Positions 31,201 to 64,000 of a stretch of DNA of 64,000 nt are shown one piece after another. The DNA lies in the IMG/VR virus record IMGVR_UViG_3300029203_000004; one strand, written 5' to 3'. Every line of letters starts with the position of its first letter. The first letter of the stretch is position 1. The DNA comes from a virus. The translations under genes were made by a program, and so were the position numbers. The notes beneath the pieces were generated by a model. It did not search any database, was not told where the DNA came from, and saw only the letters and a program-made list of their open reading frames with translations.

Positions 31201-32304
31201 TTATAACCCAGGACCCATAGAAAGAAGCAATGTACTTCCCTTATATGCAGCACTGTTAAGGCTTACCCATACCCTTGCAGTTCCTGCATTAATCAGTTCC
31301 GATGATATTAATATTCTCACCTTCTTGTCAATGCTGGAATTGGCGGATACTTGGAAATCTTCTATTGTTTCTCTTGATTCACCTATAACCATAGGATCTT
31401 CAAATTTCTTACTTGCAAACCTAGACATACAACTATTATTACGGAAAGAAATAAGGCTACTCGAACCGTTTCTTACTCTTACGGTAACTTCAATATATCC
31501 CATAACGGATGGCATCACTTCACCAAGTATTGTTATGCTTACGTAAGAACCAACTATCTCTATATCTCTTTTACTTACCATTGGAACAGTGTATGCTATA
31601 TGAGCAATATCGGAGTCATCCTGCTTCAATATAGCTGTACTAAGGAAAGGATAAACTTCCCAATCACCAGCAGTCATACCCCACGAGTTTACAGTAACCG
31701 TAGCGTATCCTGTTCCTATCTTCTTGTCGGCAGTAACACGCCTAGACATCTGACTGGTCTTGTGCTTAACATAGACACCGAAATAGCAATCAGCTATCTC
31801 GGCAAAGTCACCCATGTTAAGAAAATCAGTATCATGCCCCTCCGATGGCATCATTATAGCCGCAGAACAGACAAAATTACTACTTGTAAACTGATTGGTA
31901 GCAGTATCCGGGCAGGAGAATCTACTTATCGGTGGACTGGCAAGATGGTTGTATCCGTTAAAGTCGGTAAGACGACATGGGAATCTACCACCTGTCGGTG
32001 CTGTATATTCCCATCCGTTCATGCTTCCATCTGCGTGTTTTGGCGCATCCCAGTATCCTGCCATTTGAAAAGGTTTGACACCACAGTTCCCATCCCATCC
32101 TTGCCACCATTTTTCATTTGGTCCAGGTGCAAGGCTTTCGTAACGTACAGGTTTGTACCGTGCCCACGGGTTTATTTTCCCGTGGGTGTTTGCGCACGCA
32201 TACCCTAATTCATAACCATCACTAGTAGGACCGATGCCAAGAGTGGCGTAAACGTCACCAGCAAGGTTTATCGGGGCTGTAATCTTTCCATTAGAATGAC
32301 TCAT
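31201..32304 (-). CDS. Fibre-associated protein, paralogue of 62699..63709 (conserved N-terminus, divergent C-terminus)
   Basis: MSHSNGKITAPINLAGDVYATLGIGPTSDGYELGYAC versus MAHSNGKITAPVGLDSDVYPTLGIGPTSDGYDLGYAC. It lies immediately downstream of the giant fibre gene. Confidence 0.6.
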   Translation of the reverse strand: MSHSNGKITAPINLAGDVYATLGIGPTSDGYELGYACANTHGKINPWARYKPVRYESLAPGPNEKWWQGWDGNCGVKPFQMAGYWDAPKHADGSMNGWEYTAPTGGRFPCRLTDFNGYNHLASPPISRFSCPDTATNQFTSSNFVCSAAIMMPSEGHDTDFLNMGDFAEIADCYFGVYVKHKTSQMSRRVTADKKIGTGYATVTVNSWGMTAGDWEVYPFLSTAILKQDDSDIAHIAYTVPMVSKRDIEIVGSYVSITILGEVMPSVMGYIEVTVRVRNGSSSLISFRNNSCMSRFASKKFEDPMVIGESRETIEDFQVSANSSIDKKVRILISSELINAGTARVWVSLNSAAYKGSTLLLSMGPGL

Positions 32305-32320
32305 AATATTTTTTTATTTA

Positions 32321-35300
32321 TTAATTGTTAATTCCTAATCTATTTTCCAATTCTCTTACTCTTTTCTTTAATCTTGTAACTTCATCGTCAACTTCCTGCA
32401 ACCCCTTCCATACAACAGGAATAAGTCTTTCATAATCTATGGTGTAATAGTCCTTGAATATATCACTGACCCACTGACTGTAACCGCCGGAAAGTAAATC
32501 CTGGGCGATAAGACCATAATTCCATTTTTTATGATTGAATATCTCGGAATTTCTCTTGGCAAGATTGTTCCAGTGATATTTCACGCTCCGGAATTTGCGG
32601 ATAATACCCATAGCATCATAACCCTGAATATCGGTTTTCAACCTTATATCGGAAGAGGATGCCTTGGCAGTAATTGCTCCAGTGGCTATTATATTCCCAT
32701 TAGATTTTATAGAACCATTCACCGTCAATTTATATCCCGTGTCACCGCCATCTGGATTTTGCCCAATATATACTTGCCCACCCCTTGGTTGGAGCGATAA
32801 GTTACATCTTGATTGATACTGCGTAGGATAACTATGAGATTGTCCGTCTGTCGCATCAATAGAAGTCTGCAAACATATATTTCCGTCACTTCTTGCATCA
32901 GTTATACGCCCACTGTAAACCTTTAATGTAGCATCTCCAGTTTGCACAAATATACTTGTTGAAGTCATTTGCCCACCAACATCTCCAGAACCATTAAACG
33001 GCTGACCAAAAATATTTCTAGTATTGACAAGAACATTTGCCGCATGGGAAAGACCTGCTGTTACTGCAACAACAGTGTATTTTGAACCGCCAGGTGTTCC
33101 CGTAGTGCCATTATTTTGTGTGGTCACATACCCATAAGGGTATTGTTCCACTATCTTTATTGCAATATACGGGTCATAACTGTCCTTGACACATTTCATC
33201 CATACTCTCCATGTTATGCCATCATCCGTTGTACATCTTAATTCGGGAAGCCAACTTTGCCCGAAATTTGTCACGTAGAAAATATAACCTGCATTATTAT
33301 CTCTACCTCTTCTTATTCTAAGAACTGCACGCCCATTCATACCACCACCCGTTTCCACTCTACATAAGTCAAATATTACGTATGCTCTTAATTGTTCCTG
33401 CCCAGTAGGAATCACGAACCTTAAAAATTCTATATAGTCATAATTATTATATTGGGAAACAAAACCATCGTATTTACGATTCTGATAATATGCTCCATGT
33501 TGTCCGTCCAGTAAATCCGCACTTAGATTATCTACGGTTGTATTGCTTGAAACTATCAAAGGTGATAACCCTGTGGCAACAGTTGACATGAATCTCGGTG
33601 CTCTTACATCATTTGGAGTGACACGTAAAACCAGCTTGTTGTTATGGTCTACGACACCAAATCCTGCACTATCCGTACTACTTCCTCTAAGGTTTCCTAT
33701 ATACCAGTAGGTGTCATGCCAGTTGAACCTTAATCCGTTTCTTATAGAAGTAAGCCCACCATCATCGTTCTTGATAACTCCGTTATCTTTATAGATATTG
33801 GTAATATCACAATTTTCCACTCCCTTGAATACGATTGCGCCGGAAGTGGAAGCGGATGTAAGGGTTCCAGTCATAGTATCGCCAGCCTTTTTCACCCATC
33901 TACCGTCCAATACGGAAGTAGGGATATGACTTGCATCTATGACTTTACTTGAATCAGCCTTTTTCAATTCAGCCCACATAGCGTCAGCGTCAAGTCCTCC
34001 CTGCCCAGCCATGTCGTACAGTTTCTTTATCGTGTACGCATTAAACGTATTGTCAAGGTCTGAATCGGAGAAGGTTGTGCCGTCAGTAAGGTTTGCGAAG
34101 CTGTAAACGGTATTTACAACACCGCTGCCACCACCGCTACCACCTGTTTTCACGCCAAGAGCAGATACCCAACCGTCCGAGTAGAATCCTACCGTGTTTC
34201 CGTCTGTTCTATGCTTCACTCTCAGAGCCTTGTTTGCAGAATCGTAAACAAGTTGGGCATCTCCTATCTGTATATATTCGTTTGCTGTAAGTCGTGCTGC
34301 GGAAACGCCACCTGTAAATCCTGCTGAAACGCCATTGAGGTGTCCTTGTTTGTTTATTTGTATTACTCCTACATCTGACGTATCTCCATTAGGACGGAAA
34401 TAAATCATACCCTCATTTCCATAGCTTGATATGACGGTATTGCCTGTCGTGTTACGGAAAACAGTATTTCCGCCATAAGACAGACCGATACCACTATTCA
34501 TCAGAATATTCTTGGTAAATGTCTTTTGTCCCGAAATAGTCTGAGCAGTAGTCAAGGTAACGGCATCAGTAATCCCGTACCCTGCCAAAGTGGTAGGATT
34601 ATCACCAACTGTAACACGCCCGTAGGTGTCTACTGTAACTTTCGTATATGTACCAGCATTCACCCCCGTGGTAGCCAGTGACAATGTGCGGTTTGCGGAC
34701 AGGTTTCCACCTCCCGTAAGACCAGTTCCTGCACTTATCGTTATGGTCTTGTCCGCTTTCAGTGCAAGAAGTTCGGCTAGGTTGTCGCTTTCCGTAAGAC
34801 CGTCAAGAAACGCTTCAAGTTCTTTCCATTTGTTGATAATGTTATCGGCATCGCTTCCTTCTAGGAAGTTATTCAACTTGTTGCTTAACTGTGTTACAGT
34901 ATTATTCAGCGTACCCAAGTCCTGTTGTCTAGCGAATGTTTCCCCGAATACGGCAGTGATGGTTTTCCCGTCAGAACTAAGTGCCATGTTTGTTACGGCA
35001 TTTCCACTTCCCGACTGGGTGATGTTTTTTATACCACCACCTTCCTTCGCCATTTTCCAAATCTCGTTTATCGTGTACGCATTAAACGTATTGTCAAGGT
35101 CTGAATCGGAGAAGGTTGTGCCGAGATTGGAAAAACCATATACGTTTTTCACAAGTCCGTCACCACCGCTTCCTCCGCTTCCTCCAGGCGATACGCCTAA
35201 AGCGGAAATCCATCCTCTGGTATAGAAGCCTATTTCCGTACTTCCATCTATATGCTCAAATGTTACTGCCTTGTTTACGGAATCATATATAATCTTTATA

Positions 35301-38242
35301 TCGCCAACCTGCAACGCCTGTGTTTTTACCGTTCCGCTTATGTTGGCATCTACAGCATAAATATTCTCCCATCTCTTCGATTCAAGACCAAGTGTGGATG
35401 CGTTGTTCACGCTAGGAACTACATTTGCCGTAGACAACTGACCAGTGAATATCTTGCTTGCAGTAACTGTCTGTTCCGTATCAAGCGTTACAAATTTATT
35501 GTCAGGAAGATGGGATATGTGAATTTTCTTTGTCGGATCATCCTTTCCCAACTCCTGCCACAATTTGTCCGTATTCATTCCGCCTTCCTTGGCTAGCTTC
35601 CATATCTCGTTGATGGTATATGCGTTGAATGTATTGCTAAGGTTGGAATCGTCAAACGTCTTACCTAAATCGGCAAATCCGTACACGGCCTTAATCAGTC
35701 CGCCTTCACCACCTCCCGGTTCTCCGCTACCACTCTGTGCGCCCAACGCTGATATCCATTGGTTTGTATAGAACGCTGACTTGCATCGTAACGCTTGGTT
35801 TACTTCATCCCATTCAAACCATCCGTTGAACTTCTGAAACGATGCAATAAGGTCATTAAGTAGCTGTTCAGAGAAAATATTTGTTCCGCTTCCCGTACCA
35901 CTTCCACCCAATGTTACATTTGTCGTATTCTGTGTTGAAGCAGTCTGATTCTCCTGTGCCAGCCGTTCATAGAAAGACAGTATCTTTCTTCTTGCAATGG
36001 TGCATGAATATGACGGGAACATATTCTCCTTGGAATATTTAATCTCCAAAGACTGTATCTGTAACTGCATATCCACTATCTGACCGTTATCAGAGAAATC
36101 GAACACGCCTATTCCATCATCCCTTACCTTTAGCATATTTCCTTCTATGAAGTCAATGAAAAGGTTAGGATGCTCTGCGACAAATCCGCTAGATATGTCA
36201 AGTGAAACGGTTCGGTTCTCATGGTCATATCTTGACAGGTAGTCAAGAGCCGCCTTTTCAAGCGTGTTCTCAGCCATTGTCACATAAGATTCGGGCATGA
36301 CGATATTCAGAATGACAAACTCCGTTCCTGCTGCAATTGAAGGAGATTTACCATCCGTATAAAGCGGAAGTTTGGCATTGTCGCTATCCGTTCTGTAGCA
36401 TGATATTTTATATCGTGCCCCCTTGTTGAACATGGCAACATCCTCTTCCGTTTCCCCCGTATCACCGTTCACCTCACCGTAAAGAGGAATAATACCGTTT
36501 TTGTTTATCTTAAATTCCGTGCCTGTATAAGTTCCTGTACGCATACTGAACACCGCGTCCGTCACAGAAGCGTATTTGTAATAGAATCTGTCCTGTGAAC
36601 CGTCCTGATTACCGAAATGTATATTGCAGGTCATTTCCTCACTAAAGCCTATCTTGCAACTCCCGGCAGGAACATCGGAATCAAACGTGAACTCAACACG
36701 GATAGTAACTGTCGTATTCTGACCTTTTTCTATATATCCTACAAGAGCGGTCTTGTCGTAAGGTATTTCAAGCATACCAGTAGCACCTTCCTCTCCGATA
36801 ACAACCTCTTTCAAAGGAGAAGCCTGACCCAATACACGGTTTAAAACCATACGTAGGTTAATCTTCACCTTTTTCCCTACAGCATCACTTCCTATTGGTA
36901 ATATACTGAAAAGCATCTTCCCGGAGAATGTGGCAGTAACCTTTACAGGCTGGTCATAATATGCCCTTGTACCATATATATCAAAACTCTCGAAATCCCT
37001 GTAATTGTCAAACAGAGCATGGGGCTTGTACTGGGGCTGCACGTTGTCATTTATCTTGTCGGATGAATCACCGTCCTCATATACCTTGTACCCTAGGTTG
37101 AATCCGGGAGAGGTCATATAAATGAAGAAACTGTCACTATCATCACTCTTTATAGGAGTAGACCCGATGATTTTATCTATCCGTGTAGATGCGCTAGCAC
37201 CCTCACCTGCCACCTTACCCGATTGAGGATCGGGTTCTCCATCCGCCTTGTATGTATCCCATTCGGGAAGTCCTGACGGGTACAAATCACCAAGTTTTTT
37301 CCCTCTGATGGAAGGATATATCCCACTGAATGTATTTGATATGGTTTTTCCTCTCACACCATAGTTCTTCAATCCGTATTCGCTGTCAATATAATATCTT
37401 ATATTCCCTGCGGAATCATTCGGAAGAAGGATGTACGGGCAATAACGTGATTCATCGGCAGGCTTAGCGTCCTTCTTGTATTCGGGCGGAACGTTTCTGC
37501 TTCCGCCTTGTGGTATGATTCGGGTTATAACAGGTGTACTTGTGTCTACGGAAGAGGAAACTTTTACAGCACCCCCACCGTCACCTTGCTTGAATGTCCA
37601 GTTTACGGACGGTCTTGTCTTGTCCGTAATGGTTATTATCCCACCGTTTGCTGTCGTTGAGAAGTAATAATTGAGATAAAACTTGTCATAGAAGTTCTTC
37701 AATGCTTCAAACAGGTTGGTGCCATCGGTTATGTCAATCATATCCTCTGTCAGTTCGCCTTCCGCATCCACATTCAATGTCCATGTACCAATGCCTGTAT
37801 ATCCCACGCCCAATGAAGCATTGTAAGATTCTATATTTGCTTCTATACGTGCGGCAAGCTGTTTTGCATCACCCCAAAACTGGAACAGACCGCCATGTGT
37901 GTATCTTATCTTGTTTATCTCACCGCCTGTTCCGCTTACTATGTCAAGAAACGCCACATTCTGCAAAAGCACCTCCTTACCGTAAAACAAAAGGGAGTAT
38001 TTGTATTTTCCTGCTTCATTAAGATTATCTCCCGATGGGGCTTGGTACAGGATGAATGTATTACCGTTATATACGACTGTATCGTATTCCGATTCGCTCT
38101 TTGAGTTGTATGCCTTGAACTCTATCGGAACAACGGAAACGACTTCACAAGTCAATTTTCTCACTTCCTGCAAAGACGGGCTGTATGAAAAATCAGCACT
38201 CTCCGCAATAACCCTATTTCCTCTTTTAATCTGTAAAATCAT
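32321..38242 (-). CDS. Giant tail-associated (Tal-like) fibre protein with a C-terminal S74 intramolecular chaperone domain
   Basis: 1973 aa. Three internal modules FY[TS]..W[IV]SALG...G-rich...VY.F..L...F.DS.L.NTFNAYTI. The C-terminus SSSDIRLKTDIQ...YGLIAQDL...RLIPV followed by a coiled coil matches the Peptidase_S74 / endosialidase-chaperone pattern. Confidence 0.8.
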   Translation of the reverse strand: MILQIKRGNRVIAESADFSYSPSLQEVRKLTCEVVSVVPIEFKAYNSKSESEYDTVVYNGNTFILYQAPSGDNLNEAGKYKYSLLFYGKEVLLQNVAFLDIVSGTGGEINKIRYTHGGLFQFWGDAKQLAARIEANIESYNASLGVGYTGIGTWTLNVDAEGELTEDMIDITDGTNLFEALKNFYDKFYLNYYFSTTANGGIITITDKTRPSVNWTFKQGDGGGAVKVSSSVDTSTPVITRIIPQGGSRNVPPEYKKDAKPADESRYCPYILLPNDSAGNIRYYIDSEYGLKNYGVRGKTISNTFSGIYPSIRGKKLGDLYPSGLPEWDTYKADGEPDPQSGKVAGEGASASTRIDKIIGSTPIKSDDSDSFFIYMTSPGFNLGYKVYEDGDSSDKINDNVQPQYKPHALFDNYRDFESFDIYGTRAYYDQPVKVTATFSGKMLFSILPIGSDAVGKKVKINLRMVLNRVLGQASPLKEVVIGEEGATGMLEIPYDKTALVGYIEKGQNTTVTIRVEFTFDSDVPAGSCKIGFSEEMTCNIHFGNQDGSQDRFYYKYASVTDAVFSMRTGTYTGTEFKINKNGIIPLYGEVNGDTGETEEDVAMFNKGARYKISCYRTDSDNAKLPLYTDGKSPSIAAGTEFVILNIVMPESYVTMAENTLEKAALDYLSRYDHENRTVSLDISSGFVAEHPNLFIDFIEGNMLKVRDDGIGVFDFSDNGQIVDMQLQIQSLEIKYSKENMFPSYSCTIARRKILSFYERLAQENQTASTQNTTNVTLGGSGTGSGTNIFSEQLLNDLIASFQKFNGWFEWDEVNQALRCKSAFYTNQWISALGAQSGSGEPGGGEGGLIKAVYGFADLGKTFDDSNLSNTFNAYTINEIWKLAKEGGMNTDKLWQELGKDDPTKKIHISHLPDNKFVTLDTEQTVTASKIFTGQLSTANVVPSVNNASTLGLESKRWENIYAVDANISGTVKTQALQVGDIKIIYDSVNKAVTFEHIDGSTEIGFYTRGWISALGVSPGGSGGSGGDGLVKNVYGFSNLGTTFSDSDLDNTFNAYTINEIWKMAKEGGGIKNITQSGSGNAVTNMALSSDGKTITAVFGETFARQQDLGTLNNTVTQLSNKLNNFLEGSDADNIINKWKELEAFLDGLTESDNLAELLALKADKTITISAGTGLTGGGNLSANRTLSLATTGVNAGTYTKVTVDTYGRVTVGDNPTTLAGYGITDAVTLTTAQTISGQKTFTKNILMNSGIGLSYGGNTVFRNTTGNTVISSYGNEGMIYFRPNGDTSDVGVIQINKQGHLNGVSAGFTGGVSAARLTANEYIQIGDAQLVYDSANKALRVKHRTDGNTVGFYSDGWVSALGVKTGGSGGGSGVVNTVYSFANLTDGTTFSDSDLDNTFNAYTIKKLYDMAGQGGLDADAMWAELKKADSSKVIDASHIPTSVLDGRWVKKAGDTMTGTLTSASTSGAIVFKGVENCDITNIYKDNGVIKNDDGGLTSIRNGLRFNWHDTYWYIGNLRGSSTDSAGFGVVDHNNKLVLRVTPNDVRAPRFMSTVATGLSPLIVSSNTTVDNLSADLLDGQHGAYYQNRKYDGFVSQYNNYDYIEFLRFVIPTGQEQLRAYVIFDLCRVETGGGMNGRAVLRIRRGRDNNAGYIFYVTNFGQSWLPELRCTTDDGITWRVWMKCVKDSYDPYIAIKIVEQYPYGYVTTQNNGTTGTPGGSKYTVVAVTAGLSHAANVLVNTRNIFGQPFNGSGDVGGQMTSTSIFVQTGDATLKVYSGRITDARSDGNICLQTSIDATDGQSHSYPTQYQSRCNLSLQPRGGQVYIGQNPDGGDTGYKLTVNGSIKSNGNIIATGAITAKASSSDIRLKTDIQGYDAMGIIRKFRSVKYHWNNLAKRNSEIFNHKKWNYGLIAQDLLSGGYSQWVSDIFKDYYTIDYERLIPVVWKGLQEVDDEVTRLKKRVRELENRLGINN

Positions 38243-46673: not shown

Positions 46674-46772
46674 AGGTAATTATATACGTTTATACACATA
46701 CATATTGACGTTTCACCGTCCCGACTACTGCCGACCACTCCACGTCCTCAACCCCTTCTACCAAGGGTGATA
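46674..46772 (-). ncRNA. 3' omega-RNA scaffold / right-end region of the tnpB-2 element
   Basis: Covers the last 25 sense codons plus the stop of tnpB-2 and the 16 nt after the stop. About 95% identical (5 mismatches in 99 nt) to the gene-less copy at 61330-61428. Homology stops at AATTACCT, which I take as the element boundary. Confidence 0.5.
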
Positions 46773-47862
46773 TTAGTCCGAACCGTTTGATGTTTACCGA
46801 AGCGAGAATGTCACGATCATTGTGCCTTCCGCATTTCGGGCAAACCCATTCACGGTCACTGAGTTTCAATTCACTATTAACGTATCCGCATATACACGTC
46901 TTGGAACTTGCTTCAAAACGTCCGATACGTATAAGGTTGCGTCCATACCATTCGCACTTGTATTCAAGCTGTCGGAAAAACTCGCTCCATGAAACGGATG
47001 ATATGGATTTTGCAAGACGGTGGTTTTTCAACATACCCTTTACATTCAAATCCTCAATGATTATCGTTTGGTTTTCACGGACAATCTTTGATGTGACTTG
47101 ATGCAGGAAATTGTTGCGTTGGTTGGAAACCTTCTCATACTGTCTTGCCAATATTTTCCTTGCCCGTTCTCTTCGGTTGGAACCTTTCTTTGTCTTTGAG
47201 AATCTTCTTTGCAACACCTTTAGTCTTGTTTCCGATTTCTCAAGATATTTGGGATTGGCATACACATCACCGTTCGAACAAACTGCAAAATCCTTTATAC
47301 CGACATCTATACCGATAGACGTATCATATCTGACAGCAGGCTTTACAGGTATTTCCTTTCCATCGTCAACAAGAACAGAAATGAAATATTTACCTGTTGG
47401 TGTCTTGCTTACCGTGACAGAACATACCTTACCGTCAAACTTTCTGTTCGGAAAGAATTTAACCCATCCGATCTTTGGAAGTCTTACCTTGTTGTTGTCA
47501 AGGTCAACAGACACCGAATTTATAGCCTTGTATGACTGTCGGCTGTAATGCTTCGCCTTGAAATTTGGGAAGCCTGTCTTTTCACGGAAGAACTTCACGA
47601 ACGCGCTGTCCATATTTCTTATGGATTGTTGCAGGCACTCGTTTGATACTTCCGAAAGCCATTTCTTTCCATCTTCCTTTTTAAGTTCTGTAAGCATCTT
47701 AGCCAGTTCAACCCATCCTATCTTCGTCTTGTCACGCTGATACGCTTCTATACGTTTACCGAGCATATAGTTATATACAAACCTACAACACCCGAAAGAT
47801 TTGTTGAAGAAAACAATTTGCTCAGGAGTAGGATTAAGTCTATATTTATATGCTCGTTTCAT
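46690..47862 (-). CDS. tnpB: TnpB (IS200/IS605-family OrfB), copy 2
   Basis: MKRAYKYRLNPTPEQ. RuvC D/E/D in GIDVGIK, IIEDLNVKGM, NDRDILASVNI. Zinc finger C.C...CPKCG. Roughly half identical to copy 1 by eye. No tnpA. Confidence 0.9.
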   Translation of the reverse strand: MKRAYKYRLNPTPEQIVFFNKSFGCCRFVYNYMLGKRIEAYQRDKTKIGWVELAKMLTELKKEDGKKWLSEVSNECLQQSIRNMDSAFVKFFREKTGFPNFKAKHYSRQSYKAINSVSVDLDNNKVRLPKIGWVKFFPNRKFDGKVCSVTVSKTPTGKYFISVLVDDGKEIPVKPAVRYDTSIGIDVGIKDFAVCSNGDVYANPKYLEKSETRLKVLQRRFSKTKKGSNRRERARKILARQYEKVSNQRNNFLHQVTSKIVRENQTIIIEDLNVKGMLKNHRLAKSISSVSWSEFFRQLEYKCEWYGRNLIRIGRFEASSKTCICGYVNSELKLSDREWVCPKCGRHNDRDILASVNIKRFGLISPLVEGVEDVEWSAVVGTVKRQYVCV

Positions 47863-47926: not shown

Positions 47927-48127
47927 TTATAAATGCCATTTATTGCAGACGATATTGCCGCCTAAAATCAAACTACCCGTCACACGTACATCACCATCAA
48001 TAATGATAGCTTGTGACAAATCAAACTCTTTTGGTATATCACTACCATCTAAGGCTATTATCTCATAAAGCCCCTCTGTCGGGCTAAAGCCCCCCCCCTG
48101 TGCTCCCTCGCTTCGCTTCGGTCGCAC
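47927..48127 (-). CDS. Small conserved protein with a GTG start, a 5' G9 tract and pentanucleotide repeats
   Basis: The C-terminal 45 aa (EIIALDGSDIPKEFDLSQAIIIDGDV...) are conserved at protein level with the frame at 63696-63863. The only start is GTG. It is in the same frame as upstream ORF 48152..48556, separated by one TAA and 8 sense codons. Confidence 0.4.
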   Translation of the reverse strand: MRPKRSEGAQGGGFSPTEGLYEIIALDGSDIPKEFDLSQAIIIDGDVRVTGSLILGGNIVCNKWHL

Positions 48128-48151
48128 ACCAAATTTCCGTTTACAAACAAA

Positions 48152-48556
48152 TTAATCTTCATGTTTATTGTTTTTTAAATATTTCGCAACACTATCCATT
48201 ACACACTCAACACACCAACCTAAAAGGTATGCAAAGTGCTCATCCTGCCCTTTTTCATACCCCATAGAAATATCACAATACGCAAATACATTACAAACAT
48301 AATGAATAGATTCATGAGCAACAGTTCTCACCCCTATACCATTGTTGGATAACCAAATAAGTACACCTAAATTATTTGTACTTTTTTCTCTTACAAAAAT
48401 AGTCATGCCATTACAGCCCTTAATTTCATCTTTTGATGTATCTATCGGGTCATGATTAAGTTTGGTGAATTTTCTATGTATTTCCCCCCATTGATCATCC
48501 CCCACTGCAACATACAGTTTAAGGGGATATATTTTAGGATCGTATTTTGTTATCAT
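48152..48556 (-). CDS. Small HExxH-motif protein
   Basis: AHESIHYVCNVF...DEHFAYLLGW; same layout as 15208..15618. Confidence 0.55.
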   Translation of the reverse strand: MITKYDPKIYPLKLYVAVGDDQWGEIHRKFTKLNHDPIDTSKDEIKGCNGMTIFVREKSTNNLGVLIWLSNNGIGVRTVAHESIHYVCNVFAYCDISMGYEKGQDEHFAYLLGWCVECVMDSVAKYLKNNKHED

Positions 48557-55654: not shown

Positions 55655-57370
55655 ATGGAAGAAATTGACTTAAAATACCGAGGATTAAAGACTAAGGATG
55701 TTGTCAAATCGCTGAAACGATATGGCAAAAGGGGAATCATACCATATAAAAGCCTTGATTTCGTCCAAAGATATATAGAGGACAGAAGAAGCAAGGGGTA
55801 CAAGGTAAATATGCTTGCCCCACAGAAAGGTTCACAGGAGGCATTTCTAAGGAACAGGGCAGGGATAAAGATACTTCACGGGAATCGTGGGGGAGGAAAA
55901 TCCGTATGCCTTGGAATGGATATACTGAGTTCATGCAACCATCCGTCATTTTCCGCACTTGTTTTCCGTAAGGACAAGACATCCGCAGAAAAAGCGGACG
56001 GTATTCTTAAAGTGGTTTCAAAGATGGTTGAACCTTATGGTGAGTATATTGATTCAAAACGCCTTTCAAGACTTGACGCAGGAGGTGAAATACGATATGA
56101 TTATTTCGGTGATGCCTGCCTGTCGGGAGAAAAAGGCGTAAATGAATTTAAGGATAGACAACAGGGTGGTAACGTTGTGAAGGTGGCGATAGACGAGTGC
56201 TCACAGGCAACGGAACCTATCATAAACTACCTTCAAACGGTATTGCGTTCATCATCAGGACTAAGAACAAGTCTTATAGGCGCGTGCAACCCAAATCCGT
56301 ACAGCGATTTCTGGAGAGCAATGGTATCATGGTGGGTAGACGATGATGGAATAGCAATTCCAGAAAGATCGGGGAAAGTAAGATATTTCTTTCAATATGG
56401 AGATACTATACATGAAACAGCATGGGGTGACAGCCCACAAGAAGTATTTGCTCAGGCAAAAGATTATATCATCGCAAGATTCGGTAAAAATACCAAAATT
56501 GACGAAACAAACTGTAAAAGATACATCAAGAGCATAACCTTTATAGCTTCCGGGCTGGAAGATAACAAGATACTTATGGCTTCCAATCCCGACTATCAGA
56601 AAAACCTTGGAGGAACAGCACAGGAAGTATCCATAAACGCATTAGGTTCATGGAAGCTGATAAAAGGGGGAAACGAGTGGATAACCCGTGACGAAATGGA
56701 GGAAATGTTCTCATCGCAGCCTGTGTTTGACGATTACTTTGAATGTGCTACACTGGATATAGCATACGGTCTTGGTGACGTTTGTGTAATGGGGCACTTC
56801 ATAGGACATCACTTACAAGACCTGGAATGGTCAAACACATTAAAGCCAAGGGATTTAAACCGATGGGTAAGAAACAATCTACGGAAATGGGGAATCGGTG
56901 AAAACAGACTGGCATTTGACGGTCTTGGAGCACCTACATTTCGTGACGCATTCCCCGAAAGCCTGGCAATACTTAGAGGCGTTCCGAAAAGACTAGACAA
57001 AAGCAAGGATGATCAGCCTGTAAGATTCTATTTCGATCTAAGGGCACAGCTTGCCGATGAGATGGTAACACGTATAAAAGGAACAAACCTAGGATATTGC
57101 GGATTCAGTATAAACCCGGAACTTCTTGACAAACCGTATGTGAACAAAACAATACGGGAAGCACTGATGGATCAGAGAAGAGCAATAAGACGTGACGTGG
57201 AAAGGGAAAACGGGAAACTAAGACTGCTGAAAAAACAGGAGGCAAAAAAGATTGTAGGATGCTCGCCCGACTTGATAGAAGGAACATTTTTATACAGGAC
57301 ATATTTTGATATATGCGATGTAATGATTGACATACCTAACGATATAATGGATGAATTAAAATATTTATAA
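55655..57370 (+). CDS. terL: Terminase large subunit
   Basis: Walker A GNRGGGKS, Walker B VKVAIDECSQ; 571 aa; followed by the portal. No small-subunit ORF is seen upstream. Confidence 0.85.
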   Translation: MEEIDLKYRGLKTKDVVKSLKRYGKRGIIPYKSLDFVQRYIEDRRSKGYKVNMLAPQKGSQEAFLRNRAGIKILHGNRGGGKSVCLGMDILSSCNHPSFSALVFRKDKTSAEKADGILKVVSKMVEPYGEYIDSKRLSRLDAGGEIRYDYFGDACLSGEKGVNEFKDRQQGGNVVKVAIDECSQATEPIINYLQTVLRSSSGLRTSLIGACNPNPYSDFWRAMVSWWVDDDGIAIPERSGKVRYFFQYGDTIHETAWGDSPQEVFAQAKDYIIARFGKNTKIDETNCKRYIKSITFIASGLEDNKILMASNPDYQKNLGGTAQEVSINALGSWKLIKGGNEWITRDEMEEMFSSQPVFDDYFECATLDIAYGLGDVCVMGHFIGHHLQDLEWSNTLKPRDLNRWVRNNLRKWGIGENRLAFDGLGAPTFRDAFPESLAILRGVPKRLDKSKDDQPVRFYFDLRAQLADEMVTRIKGTNLGYCGFSINPELLDKPYVNKTIREALMDQRRAIRRDVERENGKLRLLKKQEAKKIVGCSPDLIEGTFLYRTYFDICDVMIDIPNDIMDELKYL

Positions 57371-57376
57371 TTACCT

Positions 57377-58900
57377 ATGGAAATTTTAAAATTAGACGTT
57401 TTATTACGAAAAGAACCGTTCAAAGTGGCACTTCCGTCAAGATGTGACGATGGGAGAGGTGGAGGAACAAAGAAAAAGCCAAGACGCTCCACTTTGATAT
57501 ACAAATATATGTCACAGGATGATTTCCTAGCGCAATGGGATACATCAGGACATTATATACATAACAGACCCGACTGGAAAGACAGTATCCCGTCAGACGA
57601 GGATGCCACATCATCGGATGATGAAAGCGCGAATGTAGGTGCTCAGAAAAGAAAAAAGAAATTGGCATCAACTCCATACGTACTGCAAAGACGAGCATTT
57701 CCTCTTCAAAGGATGATACATAAGAAAAGGGTATCACACCTGTGTACCAATCCTCTTAAATTTCAGATAAAGAAAAGCGCGTCAAACCAGCAGAACAGGG
57801 ATAAGCTGACAACATACAAGGAATACTGGACTGATTCTCTCATGGAAACAGCCAAGTTTGAACTTATAAGCGAAGCCGGAAAGGTAGGGGATGCTGCCAT
57901 ATATATATATAAGGATAAGGACGAGATAAAATACAGGTCTTTCAGCTACTCAAAAGGAGATATACTGTATGAACATAAAAACAGAAGAGGGGAAAGAATA
58001 GCTTTCGCAAGGGAATATACAACCACATACATATCGGCTGACGGAGAAGAACATACAGACACACTTGTCGATGTATGGACTAAAGATGAGTTTTACACGC
58101 TTGATTCCAACGGAGATATAGCAACGGATATTGACGAAAACGGAAATATCATACAACTGCATCAATTCCATAACCTTGGATTTATACCTGTAGTATATCT
58201 ACGGCTTGAACTTCCATTTTGGGGGGCAGTACAGGACTTGATAGACGATTTCGAGTTCTTAATGTCCATGATAGGAGAATACAACACACGACAGGCATTC
58301 CAAATGCTACTTATCAAGACAAACGGAAGAATAAACATTCAAAGAAACGGATTGGGAGGAACTTCCATTTTACGTGTAGGAGCAGAAGATGATGCACAAT
58401 TCATGGGTAAAATGGACGCTTCAAACTCACTTTTCACCGAAATAGATAACATATACAACGGGATACTTGACGGAAGCGGTGTCGTTCCGCCAATGCAATC
58501 ATCGTCAGGTGACAGACCTACTGGAACAACGGCAATGTATTACGAGCCGGAAATGGAATGGGCGAGAAGTGATGCACAAATGATGAATACAGCCATAAAT
58601 GACATGGCCAATATATTCAAATACTATGTAGGAGTAATGGAAGGTGACGCAACAGGTTATAACGCTCTAAGAATAAACGCTACCATAGAGCCATACTCAT
58701 ACATAGACTTCTCTGAATGGAACAATACACTCGTTCAACTTGTAAACTCCCGAATAATATCATTACAGACAGCAAGAGAAGAAAGTGACTTCTCTGCAAA
58801 TAATGAAGATGATAGAATGGACGAACAAGACAGAAGATTAAACGATATGGAAGCTAGGGTAGTGATAGAAGAAAACAACGAAAACAACGATAACAGCTAA
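57377..58900 (+). CDS. Portal protein
   Basis: 507 aa, immediately after terL. Acidic C-terminal tail. An alternative start at the internal MSQDDF is possible. Confidence 0.7.
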   Translation: MEILKLDVLLRKEPFKVALPSRCDDGRGGGTKKKPRRSTLIYKYMSQDDFLAQWDTSGHYIHNRPDWKDSIPSDEDATSSDDESANVGAQKRKKKLASTPYVLQRRAFPLQRMIHKKRVSHLCTNPLKFQIKKSASNQQNRDKLTTYKEYWTDSLMETAKFELISEAGKVGDAAIYIYKDKDEIKYRSFSYSKGDILYEHKNRRGERIAFAREYTTTYISADGEEHTDTLVDVWTKDEFYTLDSNGDIATDIDENGNIIQLHQFHNLGFIPVVYLRLELPFWGAVQDLIDDFEFLMSMIGEYNTRQAFQMLLIKTNGRINIQRNGLGGTSILRVGAEDDAQFMGKMDASNSLFTEIDNIYNGILDGSGVVPPMQSSSGDRPTGTTAMYYEPEMEWARSDAQMMNTAINDMANIFKYYVGVMEGDATGYNALRINATIEPYSYIDFSEWNNTLVQLVNSRIISLQTAREESDFSANNEDDRMDEQDRRLNDMEARVVIEENNENNDNS

Positions 58901-59232: not shown

Positions 59233-59418
59233 TGAACGTCATAACATAATAATATTTGGCAAAATAAATCGAACAGATTTTGTACAAGATATTAAGAATC
59301 CCTCTAAGGTGGCAGAAAGGAAACAATCTGCGACTTCTATGCCCTGCGTATGTTGTGACGTTCACACCTACGGAGGGTTTCTTTTTATCACAATTCGTTA
59401 AAATATGAACGTCACAAC
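59233..59418 (+). promoter_or_regulatory. Three copies of a 13-mer (TGAACGTCAYAAC) plus a structured leader upstream of and over the antirepressor start
   Basis: 59233-59245 TGAACGTCATAAC. 59352-59364 GTTGTGACGTTCA is the inverted copy. 59406-59418 TGAACGTCACAAC overlaps the ATG at 59405. CCCTCTAAGGTG (59300-59311) pairs with CACCTACGGAGGG (59365-59377) and is followed by TTTCTTTTT. Confidence 0.4.
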
Positions 59419-60160
59419 GAATGAACTTATTCCTATTAGTGATAATAACGGTAAGAGAGCCGTTAATGCACGTGATTTGCATTCTTTCCTTGAAAGTAAA
59501 AGGGATTTTTCAACATGGATTAAAGATCGCATTAAATCTTATGATTTTATTGAAGGTGTTGATTTTCAATCATTCACCGAAATTGTGGAGCGAGAAATAG
59601 GAGCTACAAAACGAATTGAATATGCTCTGTCAATCAGTATGGCAAAAGAGCTATCTATGATTGAGAACAACGAACGGGGAAGGCAAGCTAGAAAATATTT
59701 TATCGCATGTGAGGAAAACAAGCATGAGCTTTCCCGAAAGGAGCTTGCATTAATGGTAATACAAGCCGAAGAGGAAAAAGAACGGTTGGCTTTGGAGAAT
59801 AAAAAGCAACAGAAACAAATAGAAAAACTACAGCCCAAAGCGGACTTCGCCGACAAAGCCTTTGCAATGGAAGGCAAGTGCGATATAGGACAGGCGGCAA
59901 AGATACTTGGCTTGCCTTTTGGGAGAAACTCTTTGTTCAAGAAACTTCGTGAAGCAGGAGTATTCTTTGCTAATAGGAATGAGCCAAAACAGAAGTATAT
60001 TGATGCTGGGTATTTCGAGATGAAAGAAAAGCCTATTCCAAGAGAGAATCACCCAGGTTTTGTCGTGATGGTTGTTCTATGCACACAAAAAGGTCTTGCA
60101 TACATTAATCACCTGTTTGGCGGAAAACCGTCCGATGGAAAATTGGCGAGAATAGTATAG
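59405..60160 (+). CDS. Phage antirepressor (AntA-like N-domain + KilAC/ANT C-domain)
   Basis: NARDLHSFLESKRDFSTWIKDRIKSYDFIEGVDF (AntA-like). KADFADKAFAMEGKCDIGQAAKILGLPFGRNSLFKKLREAGVFF...KQKYIDAGYF (KilAC). Confidence 0.75.
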   Translation: MNVTTNELIPISDNNGKRAVNARDLHSFLESKRDFSTWIKDRIKSYDFIEGVDFQSFTEIVEREIGATKRIEYALSISMAKELSMIENNERGRQARKYFIACEENKHELSRKELALMVIQAEEEKERLALENKKQQKQIEKLQPKADFADKAFAMEGKCDIGQAAKILGLPFGRNSLFKKLREAGVFFANRNEPKQKYIDAGYFEMKEKPIPRENHPGFVVMVVLCTQKGLAYINHLFGGKPSDGKLARIV

Positions 60161-60240: not shown

Positions 60241-60669
60241 TCACTTTATCGTAACCCAAACCTGTTCGCCACGCTTTATCGCATCGTCAATCAACTTGTT
60301 CAATTTGTCAGAAGTATAGCGTGATTCGGTAAGCCTGCCTTTTGATGTATTGTTGCCTACAAGGATACACCCAGCAGAATCCTTTGCTGTATTCCCAGCG
60401 TGAAAAAGAATACCCTCAAAATGAGGCACATTCAACAACCTTGGCATATTACGCCCGAATTTTGGTGACCAGTTGTATATCACCTGGTATCTACCGTAAG
60501 GGATAGCAGATTCAGCATAAACCTTCTTCTCGTTTCCATCAAACACTCCATTCTTATTCACGTCAACAACACGATCTTCAAGCGTATTACTGAAAAACTC
60601 ACCATCAATATACAAACGCCCTATAGTATAATCAGGCTTACACCATTTTCTTTCTACTAATAGTTCCAT
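60241..60669 (-). CDS. DUF5675-like protein (possible cell-wall enzyme)
   Basis: TIGRLYIDGEFFSNTLED...AIPYGRYQV...LLNVPHFEGILFHAGNTAKDSAGCILVG matches my recollection of the DUF5675 family (H...GC signature reminiscent of YkuD-type enzymes). Confidence 0.65.
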   Translation of the reverse strand: MELLVERKWCKPDYTIGRLYIDGEFFSNTLEDRVVDVNKNGVFDGNEKKVYAESAIPYGRYQVIYNWSPKFGRNMPRLLNVPHFEGILFHAGNTAKDSAGCILVGNNTSKGRLTESRYTSDKLNKLIDDAIKRGEQVWVTIK

Positions 60670-60712
60670 AGTTAAAATGTATTTAGTTTTACAAAGTTAC
60701 AAAATAAACACA

Positions 60713-60720
60713 TACATTTG
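60713..60720 (+). promoter_or_regulatory. -7 promoter box (TAcaTTTG) for the Panacea-domain gene
   Basis: Exact match 38 nt upstream of the ATG at 60758. Confidence 0.4.
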
Positions 60721-60757
60721 CACACATAATAAAACATTTTATAAAGCATATACAAAA

Positions 60758-61198
60758 ATGTATAAATCAAGACAAATAGCAGATTGGATAATACATAAGA
60801 CACATGGCAATATAACACATTCAAAATTACAAAAATTGTTATATTATTGCCAAGCGTGGCATTATACAATTTTCAATGAGGTTTTATTTGATGAAAGAAT
60901 TGAAGCATGGGCGCACGGCCCTGTTGTACCATCCCAATTCAGCAGATTTAATAACATAGATTTTTTCCAAAACATAAAAGTAAAAGATTGTGAGAACATT
61001 AAACTGAAAAGTAAAACAGAACAATTACTGAACGAAGTTGTTGGAATATACAATAAATGTACTGATAGACACCTTGAATTATTGGTAAAAAGAGAAGATC
61101 CTTGGAGAGAAACAAGAGGGAATATACCAGAGTTTAAGAAATGCCAAAAAGAAATAAAATTGGACCTAATGAAACAATATTATATAAATCTAAATTAA
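60758..61198 (+). CDS. Panacea (DUF4065 / SocA / GepA-like) domain protein
   Basis: ITHSKLQKLLYYCQAWHYTIFNEVLFDERIEAWAHGPVVPSQF is the DUF4065 core pattern (KLQKLLYY...AW..GPV). ATG at 60758 preferred. Confidence 0.7.
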   Translation: MYKSRQIADWIIHKTHGNITHSKLQKLLYYCQAWHYTIFNEVLFDERIEAWAHGPVVPSQFSRFNNIDFFQNIKVKDCENIKLKSKTEQLLNEVVGIYNKCTDRHLELLVKREDPWRETRGNIPEFKKCQKEIKLDLMKQYYINLN

Positions 61199-61254: not shown

Positions 61255-61262
61255 TACCTTTG
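61255..61262 (+). promoter_or_regulatory. -7 promoter box (TAccTTTG) upstream of the orphan omega-RNA-like segment
   Basis: Exact TAnnTTTG match in ORF-free DNA, 68 nt upstream of 61330. It shares TACCTTTGCA.TAT with the box at 61695. Confidence 0.35.
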
Positions 61263-61329
61263 CATTATCATAAAGCATCCGTTAATGGATATAGCTTAAA
61301 TAGTTATTTTCATGCAAAAACTAAATTAG

Positions 61330-61428
61330 TATCACCCTTGGTAGAAGGGGTTGAGGACGTGGAGTGGTCGACAGTAGTCGGGGCGGTGAAGCGTCAATAT
61401 GTACGTATATAAACGTATATAATTACCT
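61330..61428 (+). ncRNA. Gene-less copy of the tnpB-2 3' end / right end (orphan omega-RNA scaffold or IS remnant)
   Basis: 99 nt with 5 mismatches to the reverse complement of 46674-46772. No tnpB ORF is attached. It is bracketed by a promoter box (61255) and a strong terminator (61434-61472). Confidence 0.55.
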
Positions 61429-61922: not shown

Positions 61923-62709
61923 GATTGCAGACTATTACTTCCAGGTAAAAAGACTTGCCAACGGTATAAAATCGTCAACCAAAGGGCGTGCGGAGAAGTT
62001 CTCTAAGGACCTTCTAGCCGTATTCCTTTTGGCAGGGGTTAAATCGTTCAAGTCAATATCAAAACTCCCGGATAGTCAAAAAGAAAAAGTGCTTGAACTT
62101 ACCAAAAAGTTCCGTGAGGATATATATAACGACATATACCAATATGTATTGGAAAGCAATAAACTGTCACTCGAATTAAACAATGATCTTGGATGGGAGT
62201 ATATTTCAATGACGGACAACGGAATTAAGGAATATATGGAAAGGACATACGGTGGAGAAACGACAAAGCAGAGAATAAACACAAATACAAACAGATTCCG
62301 CGCTGTTGTTGAAGTATATCTTGCCAATACATTACTGTCCACAAAAACGAACAATATAGAGAAGATAACGGATGAGGTTCAAAAAAAGATATGGAACAAC
62401 ATATCATCACCATATAACGTATCATTTATTCCGCCAAGCAAACAGAAACACTATGGGAGAGGATATGCCACAAATGGTATAAGCCAGTTGTATGTTATAG
62501 AACAGCAGATGATTCTAGGAATTTTCAATGAAGCAAATTACAACTCATGGAAAAACATTCCAAATTTCAAGGGATGGAGGACAGCAGTAACGTCTAAAAA
62601 TCCATGCCAGTTCTGCATTGACGAGCAATACAGAATACACACAGACAGACCTAAGCTGCCGTTCCATGCCCATTGCTTGTGTATATTGTATCCAGTGTTT
62701 AATATATAA
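61897..62709 (+). CDS. Head morphogenesis / minor capsid protein (SPP1 gp7 / Mu F-like)
   Basis: C-terminal NPCQFCIDEQYRIHTDRPKLPFHAHCLCILYPV fits the Phage_Mu_F ending (C..C ... P.H..C.C). Confidence 0.7.
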   Translation: MINKEEISKIADYYFQVKRLANGIKSSTKGRAEKFSKDLLAVFLLAGVKSFKSISKLPDSQKEKVLELTKKFREDIYNDIYQYVLESNKLSLELNNDLGWEYISMTDNGIKEYMERTYGGETTKQRINTNTNRFRAVVEVYLANTLLSTKTNNIEKITDEVQKKIWNNISSPYNVSFIPPSKQKHYGRGYATNGISQLYVIEQQMILGIFNEANYNSWKNIPNFKGWRTAVTSKNPCQFCIDEQYRIHTDRPKLPFHAHCLCILYPVFNI

Positions 62710-63709
62710 TAACTTGATAATCAACATACCATTGAGTAACATTACCATAAGACGGGGGATTTCCAGCATCAACCACATCATTACGAGTAAATGATTTAGG
62801 AATATTTGTGCACGAAGGCATCAATATATTACCTGACCATTGACCTGTATAAGATCCATCTTTCGCTCTCCATCTATATCTAGCGTATGGTCTGCCGGAT
62901 GAAGCAACGTAATCACTAGAAGTGTTATTTGTAATGTTCAATCTGCATTTAGAAGAAGTAGAGCCATTTGTCAACTGTCCGTAAACAGAGAATCCAGAAG
63001 CGTTGGCTGTTGTATCTCCAAGTGTAATAGAAAGACTTTGTGTAACCACTATCGGCTTACGAATAAATCCGTCAGATGTAGTAGGAATTAAGCATAATAC
63101 ATTTCCACTGTAATCACAAAAATAACCCTTAAGATAAATATATGTATCCCCCATAGATATGAGATTATTGCGATTAAGGGTAATTGAAATTTTTCCTGTA
63201 CTATCAATACTACTTACAACAAAAACTCCAGAATCTACCAACCTCTTTAATTGATTATATACTTCTACCTTTATCTTCATATTAGACCAAGTAAATCCCC
63301 CAAGTATTTTACCCCAATTATACCTAGAATCAGCCCAATATGGTGAAATTGTAAGTACAAACGTTGTCTTTGTAGCATCTACAGGATTAGTTAGAATATC
63401 TTTATCTATTGTAAGAGGTTTAGCCCCATGATCGTATCCATCAAAATCAGTAAGCCTATACCATGTTTTAGGTCTATCATATACTAATTTCTTATTTACA
63501 GAATCATAAATTATACCAGGTAAACTAGCGTTGTCAAATGAAGGGCTAGACGCTTCTTTGGGTTTTATATAACTCCACATATTAATTTTTTCGCTAAGAC
63601 AAGCATACCCTAAATCATAACCATCACTAGTAGGACCGATGCCTAAGGTAGGATATACATCACTATCCAATCCGACAGGTGCAGTGATTTTTCCGTTAGA
63701 GTGAGCCAT
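62699..63709 (-). CDS. Fibre-associated protein, paralogue of 31201..32304
   Basis: ATG at 63709 (MAHSNGKITAP...). The N-terminal ~45 aa and the underlying nucleotides are conserved with 31201..32304; the rest is divergent. Confidence 0.6.
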   Translation of the reverse strand: MAHSNGKITAPVGLDSDVYPTLGIGPTSDGYDLGYACLSEKINMWSYIKPKEASSPSFDNASLPGIIYDSVNKKLVYDRPKTWYRLTDFDGYDHGAKPLTIDKDILTNPVDATKTTFVLTISPYWADSRYNWGKILGGFTWSNMKIKVEVYNQLKRLVDSGVFVVSSIDSTGKISITLNRNNLISMGDTYIYLKGYFCDYSGNVLCLIPTTSDGFIRKPIVVTQSLSITLGDTTANASGFSVYGQLTNGSTSSKCRLNITNNTSSDYVASSGRPYARYRWRAKDGSYTGQWSGNILMPSCTNIPKSFTRNDVVDAGNPPSYGNVTQWYVDYQVIIY

Positions 63710-63863
63710 AATCACCCCCTTTCTCTATAACGGTATAAGAACCTTTACAAACAACAATGCCATTATAACTGATACTACGACAATGAATATCGCCATCAAT
63801 TATAACAGCATCAGAAATATCATAATCACTAGGAAGTTCCTTGCCACATAGTGTTATAACTTC
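63696..63863 (-). other. Conserved reading frame paralogous to 47927..48127, but without any ATG/GTG/TTG start
   Basis: Translates to EVITLCGKELPSDYDISDAVIIDGDIHCRSISYNGIVVCKGSYTVIEKGGDYGSL*. About half the aligned residues are identical to the 48-kb copy despite many synonymous nucleotide differences. The frame is open back to a TAG at 63918-63920 inside the tandem array and contains no canonical start. Confidence 0.4.
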
Positions 63864-64000
63864 GACTGCCCCTGTGCAGCTAGACTGCCCCTGTGCAGCT
63901 AGACTGCCCCTGTGCAGCTAGACTGCCCCTGTGCAGCTAGACTGCCCCTGTGCAGCTAGACTGCCCCTGTGCAGCTAGACTGCCCCTGTGCAGCTAGACT
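63864..64000. repeat. Perfect 19-bp tandem repeat, at least 7.2 copies, running off the window
   Basis: Unit GACTGCCCCTGTGCAGCTA (period 19, first copy at 63864, next at 63883, and so on), with no variant positions seen. Each unit carries TAG on both strands, so every frame on either strand hits a stop within 3 units. Confidence 0.9.

Follow-up and report, generated by a model that had tools for sequence, protein, structure and literature searches.

A stop-bearing 19-nucleotide tandem array in a gut phage: a probable contingency locus in the 5' coding region of a small gene

Introduction

What use would a tailed phage have for a perfect tandem array of 19-nucleotide (nt) units that carries a stop codon in every unit and abuts a conserved reading frame with no start of its own? 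The question is raised by IMG/VR virus record IMGVR_UViG_3300029203_000004, from which a stretch of 64,000 nt (hereafter the window) was analysed. Positions 63864-64000 of the window are occupied by 7.2 copies of the unit GACTGCCCCTGTGCAGCTA, as given by Tandem Repeats Finder (period 19, 100% matches, score 274), and the raw sequence is concordant with this; the next-best tandem array in the 64-kb window has a score of 57. On the minus strand, which is the gene strand, the unit reads TAGCTGCACAGGGGCAGTC. No further sequence follows the array before the window ends, and 7.2 copies must therefore be taken as a minimum.

An original prediction, made from the sequence of the window, had described a perfect array of at least seven copies running to the window end, as is indeed found, and had offered three candidate roles for it: a copy-number-dependent switch for the downstream fibre-associated genes, an iteron or protein-binding array, or a terminal or packaging-related repeat. 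The first of these fits best. On balance we consider it probable that the array is a hypermutable contingency locus in the 5' part of the coding sequence of a small gene of the phage, with a layout like that of the opa genes of Neisseria, in which slipped-strand events would turn the gene ON or OFF by frameshift. The observations presented here concern the anatomy of the repeat-bearing cassette, the arithmetic of its reading frames, the step-wise variation of the array between genomes, the intactness of OFF alleles and the existence of a second cassette of the same kind.

The array lies within a small gene

Each unit contains the palindrome CTAG and so has TAG on both strands; combined with a period of 19, this places a stop within 57 nt in every frame, as can be read directly from the sequence. 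The claim that no frame on either strand stays open for longer, and that the array is not a protein repeat, is therefore borne out: with a TAG in each unit, no more than 2.74 units can be read through. The 19-bp unit also shows dyad symmetry (CTGC-N6-GCAG and AGCT), and the array folds into hairpins better than shuffled sequences do on both strands (z -2.6 and -3.0).

The position of the array relative to genes becomes clear from relatives of the window phage. In one of the nearest, a 75.6-kb IMG/VR virus designated G002, an array of 2.74 copies lies inside an intact open reading frame (ORF) of 92 amino acids (aa), on the strand that corresponds to the window's minus strand (locus L001, 1442..1720). 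The ATG of this ORF overlaps the stop codon of an upstream 94-aa gene and is followed by a conserved 59-nt leader encoding MKI(N/S)LF..GNLVCDRSEAREHRG, by the repeats, which are translated as the linker SLAAQGQSSCTGAV, and by a 55-codon domain (EVITLCG...) whose stop codon lies 11 nt beyond the ATG of a 338-aa gene for an immunoglobulin (Ig)-like protein. The 55-codon domain is the start-less conserved frame of the window (63696-63863), and its start is absent there since the window stops within the array, short of the start codon. Thus the array does not sit upstream of that frame, as had been supposed, but inside the gene that owns it, and the description of the array as non-coding on both strands applies to this long allele only, since in short alleles it forms the translated linker of a 74- or 92-aa ORF.

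Predictions of the 92-aa protein recur across many contigs, with 120 contigs for one variant. Two versions of the cassette, described below, can be compared within one genome: their 59-nt leaders are almost identical, and their domains share 46% protein identity (E 2e-11), with conservative replacements, at a DNA identity of only ~60%. The two leader variants, read from the alignment, differ by changes that are synonymous or conservative in the ATG frame. Judged by sequence, the small ORF is genuinely coding in its leader as well as in its domain. A lipoprotein or signal-peptide function for the leader (MKINLFVNGNLVC) was rejected by eye, the hydrophobic core being too short and polar and the lipobox poor.

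The domain also contains a predicted 25-bp RNA hairpin (Table 1), rich in G-U pairs and therefore specific to the mRNA strand. Among 53 haplotypes, variation in the hairpin is mostly pair-preserving, with G-U pairs changing to A-U or G-C; the second type of cassette has no counterpart of it (z -0.3). Leader, array and domain gave no Rfam match.

Frame arithmetic and the state of the alleles

Since the unit is 19 nt long, each unit added or removed moves the reading frame by one position. ON and OFF states were called by translation of the assembled sequence. An array of 52 nt (2.74 copies) is in frame with the ATG and gives the 92-aa product, whilst one of 33 nt (1.74 copies) is in frame with a GTG that lies 31 nt further downstream, following a TAA in that frame, and gives a 74-aa product without the leader peptide. 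An array of 14 nt (0.74 copies) lands in a frame without a start codon and is OFF. In arrays of 71 nt or more (at least 3.74 copies), the TAG at the unit junction closes every frame and a 37-aa stub is left; taken over all non-ON lengths, the stubs measure 31-37 aa. With at least 7.2 copies, the cassette at the window end (cassette 1) carries an OFF allele.

Related cassettes fall into two types, that of cassette 1 (A-type) and that of the second cassette (B-type). Amongst unique A-type haplotypes, 18 are ON from the ATG, 17 are ON from the GTG and 40 are OFF; the corresponding figures for the B type are 8, 8 and 6. In 39 of the 40 OFF alleles the 55-codon frame remains open, and the downstream ORFs are of full length (336, 359 or 405-420 aa). 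As far as their sequences tell, then, the OFF alleles are not decaying.

Read-through of TAG by a phage suppressor tRNA was considered and rejected, as window and G002 alike have a tRNA-Cys and no other tRNA; TAG also terminates neighbouring genes and is an ordinary stop here. Nor can frameshifting join the small ORF and the Ig-like gene into one product as a general rule, since in B-type cassettes the two ORFs do not overlap.

Array length among related phages

Exact-pattern scans found the same repeat in 96 IMG/VR stretches, in 35 metagenome stretches (from human gut where a source is stated) and in three contigs of metagenome-assembled genomes (MAGs). Linker length was measured between the constant leader and the constant start of the domain. 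A-type linkers measure 14 (n=8), 33 (n=21), 52 (n=27), 71 (n=32), 90 (n=13), 109 (n=2), 128 (n=3), 147 (n=2) and 166 nt (n=1), and B-type linkers 11 (n=2), 30 (n=10), 49 (n=12), 68 (n=3) and 87 nt (n=4). The check for copy-number variation that had been proposed thus shows lengths differing in 19-nt steps between constant flanks and, as the steps are seen among near-identical relatives, supports the suggestion of recent expansion or ongoing slippage.

How quickly the length changes relative to its surroundings can be gauged from closely related haplotypes. In pairs that differ by 1-4 single-nucleotide polymorphisms per 800 nt of flank, array length is unequal in seven out of seven cases; a further three pairs with identical flanks differ by one or two units, a difference that follows of necessity from de-duplication by flank and length together. 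When 85 distinct downstream flanks of 700 nt are placed on a tree, the ON/OFF label requires 31 changes against a mean of 28 (range 21-34) for shuffled labels, and a four-state label 41 against 38.5. Change counts at the level of shuffled labels indicate that the state of the tract is without phylogenetic signal. In L106, L126 and L145, variant units have become uniform throughout the array, and L132 and L135 carry a 20-nt unit, indicating repeated contraction and re-expansion.

Loss of sequence can also be larger in scale. In the 109-aa protein P0114, a natural deletion has brought repeat and domain into direct fusion with the upstream 94-aa gene, which shows that larger rearrangements can also have their breakpoints in the repeat region.

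A second cassette with the same layout

A second cassette is found in the head-tail region of the window, again on the minus strand (Table 1). Its leader is followed by GCACAG and nine G residues, and its unit, ACAGAGGGGCTTTAGCCCG, although diverged, can be aligned to the array unit, has the same length of 19 nt and carries TAG in the same phase. The original prediction had noted, at 48089-48104, the core of the array unit expanded into a C9 run; the run is present (48090-48098 on the plus strand), but the site holds more than that, having 1.7 copies of a 19-nt direct repeat of its own. The G9 run adds 3 nt, and the GTG frame of this cassette consequently stays open. In relatives the B-type unit is present in 0.6 to 4.6 copies, and the in-frame proteins correspond to the 2.6-copy (ATG) and 1.6-copy (GTG) forms.

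Two further points link the cassettes. One protein, P0125, has A-type repeats joined to a B-type domain, implying that the cassettes recombine. In addition, the 19-nt period, the phase of the stop and the leader have all been kept despite domains that are only 46% identical, which argues that the arrangement is maintained and not accidental.

Downstream of cassette 2, the window and G002 differ. A TnpB element of ~1250 bp, which encodes an IS605-family TnpB, takes the place in the window of 1247 bp of G002 that hold the 405-aa Ig-like gene of cassette 2, and no second Ig-like paralog is present at the TnpB site in the window. By this comparison of sequences, the window phage has a TnpB element in exchange for the gene of a putative binding protein.

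Elsewhere, at 61260-61412 (+) in the window and at 24573-24711 in G002, a short segment duplicates the 3' terminus of the TnpB reading frame and of the element, with the peptide ...SPLVEGVEDVEWS.VVG.VKRQYV... In G002, the two ends of the TnpB element lie adjacent with the gene absent between them. Such an arrangement resembles a mini-element that lacks TnpB, or else a remnant of an omega-RNA.

The downstream gene and a model for switching

The 338-aa protein encoded downstream of cassette 1 is modelled by AlphaFold2 with a mean predicted local distance difference test (pLDDT) score of 86.6, as a conserved N-terminus of ~45 aa followed by two beta-sandwich domains of the Ig/fibronectin type III (FN3) kind. 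Matches to its fold include a single-chain variable fragment (scFv), FN3 domains, RbmA and phage FN3/Big structural proteins. The ~45 N-terminal residues are common to three Ig-like paralogs, the third of which is located directly after the tail-fibre gene (Table 1). A common N-terminus combined with varied C-termini, beside a fibre gene, would fit a set of interchangeable binding proteins attached to the virion or its fibres.

The start of the Ig-like gene overlaps the end of the small ORF by ~14 nt. In A-type cassettes the small-ORF stop overlaps the ATG of the Ig-like gene, and B-type cassettes have 3 nt between the stop and the ATG that follows it. Together with a predicted 9-bp hairpin that encloses the ATG, the overlap makes it plausible that translation of the Ig-like gene is coupled to that of the small ORF.

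The sequence hallmarks of a contingency locus are present here: a perfect non-triplet repeat within an ORF, variation by whole units, alternation between intact and truncated products on translation, and OFF alleles that are otherwise intact. The mechanism we propose is as follows. Perfect, hairpin-prone 19-nt units would misalign during replication or recombination and whole units would be gained or lost, the outcome being two ON lengths and many OFF lengths. We infer that such changes of length are frequent and reversible within one phage population and that translation of the Ig-like gene depends on the small ORF; the pay-off would be heterogeneity in host binding. With two cassettes and a diversity-generating retroelement (DGR; see below) in one genome, a single burst could hold several configurations of binding proteins.

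Weighing the alternatives

A number of points weigh against a contingency locus. The first concerns the small protein itself, which is of no known family and whose AlphaFold2 model is poor (pLDDT 39.5). Neither it nor the 338-aa protein has a Pfam or PHROGs family; a profile search of 1.8 billion representatives returned its own family only, plus Kelch-like and SprB-repeat noise, and an Atlas feature search gave weak bactofilin leads only (0.76-0.81). The use of GTG as start codon of the 74-aa form is an assumption. The third Ig-like paralog has no leader ORF, so that the gene family can be expressed without one, and the coupling to the small ORF is predicted only. Finally, all copy numbers come from short-read assemblies, and some length differences may be assembler noise. 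The lengths 71, 90, 128 and 147 nt are the shortest in-phase lengths that exceed k-1 for k=55, 77, 127 and 141; these classes may in part be longer tracts collapsed in the de Bruijn graph, in which case the counts of long arrays may be too low. As all four lengths are OFF, the ON/OFF call is unaffected by such collapse, but the exact copy numbers of long arrays, that of the window included, are uncertain.

The alternative that survives best is a selectively neutral, unstable minisatellite, that is, a mutational hot spot in a dispensable accessory gene which breaks and restores the frame by accident, with no gain from bet-hedging. ON alleles are not enriched (35 ON against 40 OFF for the A type, more than half of these alleles being OFF), which is compatible with a dispensable gene; arrays drift up to 8.7 copies, far off the two ON lengths; and the loss of the window's cassette-2 Ig-like gene to an insertion sequence (IS) element indicates that the module is dispensable. 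A neutral hot spot does not, however, account for OFF alleles that are undecayed in both domain and downstream ORFs, nor for the retention of period 19, TAG phase and leader in two cassettes with such diverged domains, nor for a leader that retains two starts in two different frames. We regard this explanation as unlikely.

Could the seven or more copies in the window instead be an artefact of assembly at a contig end, an unresolved de Bruijn loop standing in for a tract that is in truth short? The array touches the window end, which may also be the end of a contig. Of the related arrays, nineteen are located at true contig termini, four contigs having the array at both ends, and the lengths resemble k-mer overlaps (55, 74 and 77 nt, for example), so that the caution voiced in the original prediction about contig ends remains valid. 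The assembly of the nearest MAG, G001, likewise breaks at the tract, although such breaks also fit what is expected of long or heterogeneous tracts. Indeed, tracts shorter than k cause an assembler neither to break nor to loop, and where it does break the tract must either truly exceed k or be of mixed length. Arrays of 109-166 nt with unique sequence on both sides are found in independent assemblies, and the tract occurs in more than 100 contigs from many samples, so the tract itself is real. An artefact is in our judgement improbable.

A third possibility, and one to which we give little credence, is an iteron-like or regulator-binding array, in which the dyad units would bind a phage DNA-binding protein and copy number would tune replication or transcription. 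The dyad symmetry of the unit is in keeping with this, as is the location of cassette 1 at the end of the G002 replication module, with an SSB-like gene ~1 kb and a primase/helicase ~9 kb upstream; the origin iterons of phage lambda are also ~19 bp long and lie inside a gene. Copy number is unconstrained, however, ranging from 0.7 to 8.7 with no preferred value, and a second array with a diverged unit is found in the head-tail region. The units are strictly head to tail, without spacers or an adjacent AT-rich region, whereas iterons are fixed repeats at an initiator gene with AT-rich sequence nearby, and the ORF that hosts the array belongs to no replication-protein family. Moreover, both arrays occupy the same codon position in two paralogous ORFs, which is explained by a frame model and not by a binding model.

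That the array is a terminal or packaging (pac/cos) repeat of the phage genome is highly improbable: some related contigs begin and end in the array and look terminally redundant, but assembly breaks explain these, there are two arrays per genome, the window's falls within an ORF at a distance of ~6.5 kb from the terminase gene, and the 75.6-kb relative, a record with direct terminal repeats by its classification, has these repeats elsewhere and the array at an internal position, ~20.6 kb.

Two other candidates were rejected. A promoter-spacing switch is at odds with an array that comes after the start codon, and the leader showed no -33/-7 elements of the Bacteroides type with the right spacing. 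A CRISPR-repeat mimic would call for spacers, of which there are none; within the bacterial genome collection the unit was confined to three stretches, each a metagenome-bin contig that also has the phage cassette.

As a separate observation, the IMG/VR contigs 3300045988_138725, _133172, _144683 and _140835 (~92-97 kb) each start and end inside the 19-mer array (loci L017/L063, L020/L061, L027/L051 and L052/L073, in that order). Calls of terminal repeats or circularity for these four contigs may rest on the tandem repeat and not on true ends.

Phage context

The window is that of a tailed phage, and the features discussed here are listed in Table 1. Its nearest records are G002, with which it shares 55% of sampled words, and G001, a 3.2-Mb metagenome bin labelled uncultured Odoribacter; a megablast search of the last 2 kb of the window against the phage GenBank collection gave no match. 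The occurrence of the repeat in gut records and bins indicates that the host is some member of the gut Bacteroidales. The reverse transcriptase and the 699-aa protein encoded next to it are probably a DGR with a fibre target. Between the portal gene and cassette 1 lies an accessory island whose anti-repressor, Ant, matches phrog_63 (E 2e-53).

Table 1 Location of cassette features and of other genes in the 64,000-nt window
Feature	Position	Strand	Remarks
19-nt tandem array (cassette 1)	63864..64000	-	5' coding region of small ORF, placement inferred from relatives (L001 1442..1720; 92-aa proteins on many contigs); OFF allele
Small-ORF 3' domain	63696..63863	-	55 codons plus TAA; 46% aa identity to domain of paralogous cassette; frame intact in 39/40 OFF alleles
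RNA hairpin, 25 bp, predicted	63756..63812	-	Within small-ORF domain; z ~-4.4, 0/200 shuffles as stable
RNA hairpin, 9 bp, predicted	63698..63718	-	Encloses ATG of Ig-like gene; one compensatory change
Ig-like gene	62699..63709 (to 63715 from GTG)	-	336 aa from ATG 63709, 338 aa from GTG 63715
Cassette 2, overall	47927-48162	-	
Cassette-2 leader	48104..48162	-	ATG 48162-48160; DNA nearly identical to pre-array leader in relatives
Cassette-2 linker	48071..48103	-	33 nt, 1.7 copies of diverged B-type 19-nt unit; first unit with G9
Cassette-2 small ORF	47927..48127	-	Open from GTG frame, 66 aa
IS605-family TnpB	46690..47862, ends to ~47937	-	OrfB_IS605, HTH_OrfB_IS605 and Cas12f1-like TNB domains
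Third Ig-like paralog	31201..32304	-	367 aa; without leader or repeat; directly after tail-fibre gene 32321..38242
Tail-fibre protein	32321-38242		1973 aa
Probable tape measure	38988-45155		2055-aa ORF, by size and position
Major head protein	52943-54070		
Large terminase	55655-57370	opposite to array	Array ~6.5 kb away
Probable portal gene	57377-58900		After large terminase; no family match
Accessory island: anti-repressor Ant	59405-60160	+	Between portal gene and cassette 1
Accessory island: DUF5675 protein	60241-60669	-	Between portal gene and cassette 1
Accessory island: SocA/Panacea antitoxin-domain protein	60677-61198	+	Between portal gene and cassette 1
DGR-type reverse transcriptase	21514-22803	-	phrog_1423 match, E 3e-76
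699-aa protein	23225-25324	-	Tail-fibre-like matches; next to reverse transcriptase

Comparison with known systems

In Neisseria, the opa genes carry CTCTT pentamer repeats in the leader-peptide coding region at ~11 paralogous loci, and by analogy theirs is the closest layout to the one described here. In both, the ORF opens with a conserved leader and has a non-triplet repeat immediately behind it, frameshifts caused by units being gained or lost give translational ON and OFF states, and paralogous loci in one genome have a common leader and repeat but differ in their variable parts; inter-locus recombination is also a common feature, represented here by P0125. The systems differ in the length of the unit (19 nt as opposed to 5 nt) and in its stop codon, which here leaves two short ON lengths only, whereas in opa every third length is ON. 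The opa genes belong to a bacterium and the present cassettes to a phage, no signal peptide can be recognised in the leader here, and there is no sequence homology between the two.

A phage-borne parallel is neuO of the Escherichia coli K1 prophage CUS-3, which has heptanucleotide AAGACTC repeats in its 5' coding region. Here too a non-triplet tandem repeat near the 5' end of a phage-borne gene sets ON and OFF by copy number, but the 7-nt unit of neuO has no stop within it, there is a single locus, and the product is a lysogenic-conversion enzyme acting on the host capsule instead of a virion-associated module.

Other phages switch tropism by different devices, such as the invertible tail-fibre segments of Mu and P1 (Gin/Cin) and the DGR of Bordetella phage BPP-1. 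The purpose is probably the same, namely to diversify host-binding proteins within a phage population, but those devices work by site-specific inversion or mutagenic retrohoming and not by repeat slippage. The BPP-1 DGR is described in a paper on gut Bacteroidetes phages (PMC8008677) that describes DGRs in those phages but not the 19-nt repeat feature.

Closer in mechanism are the polyG tracts that Campylobacter Fletchervirus phages carry in their genes for receptor-binding proteins (Sorensen et al., Cell Rep 2021, cited in bioRxiv 10.1101/2025.10.21.683753). To go by what is summarised of that work, the two systems have in common a phage-encoded hypermutable repeat in host-recognition genes, mixed progeny and hosts with phase-variable surfaces; the Fletchervirus repeats, as summarised, are homopolymers of 7-11 G inside the receptor-binding-protein gene itself, unlike an array of 19-nt units in a small upstream ORF. 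The nearest thing to such a polyG tract in the present case, on the same account of it, is the G9 run, found only in cassette 2 of the window. Contingency loci have also been reported in coliphages T2 and T4, as homopolymer runs of at least 6 nt across all gene classes (Gomez, Barrick and Waters, bioRxiv 10.1101/2025.10.21.683753). These resemble the present locus in that reversible polymerase-slippage frameshifts in phage genes are proposed to serve bet-hedging, but the survey scanned homopolymers alone, and neither multi-copy arrays of long units nor a dedicated leader cassette is described in it.

In the searchable literature, then, phage-encoded contingency loci are homopolymer runs only (Fletchervirus polyG, T2/T4), and no description was found there of a long-unit, stop-bearing, multi-locus repeat switch in gut phages. 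What sets the present case apart is a 19-nt unit with its own stop codon, a conserved leader common to two paralogous cassettes, and a lineage present in many human-gut metagenomes.

Biological significance

A broader proposal can be made, though more tentatively, and we would not put it at even chances. Abundant phages of human-gut Bacteroidales may possess, at two loci in each genome, a dedicated opa-like cassette composed of a conserved leader, a stop-bearing 19-nt repeat and a variable small domain, which independently switches alternative Ig-like fibre-accessory proteins and which, together with the DGR, would yield progeny of mixed tropism able to track the phase-variable capsules of their hosts; this would be the first long-unit, multi-locus contingency system of a phage.

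If a contingency locus is indeed what the array represents, it would explain why assemblies of these phages frequently break or are falsely circularised at the tract, and tract length would provide a simple marker for phage subpopulations in long-read viromes. It would also constitute a new route to bet-hedging for gut phages faced with Bacteroidales hosts whose surface structures are phase-variable.

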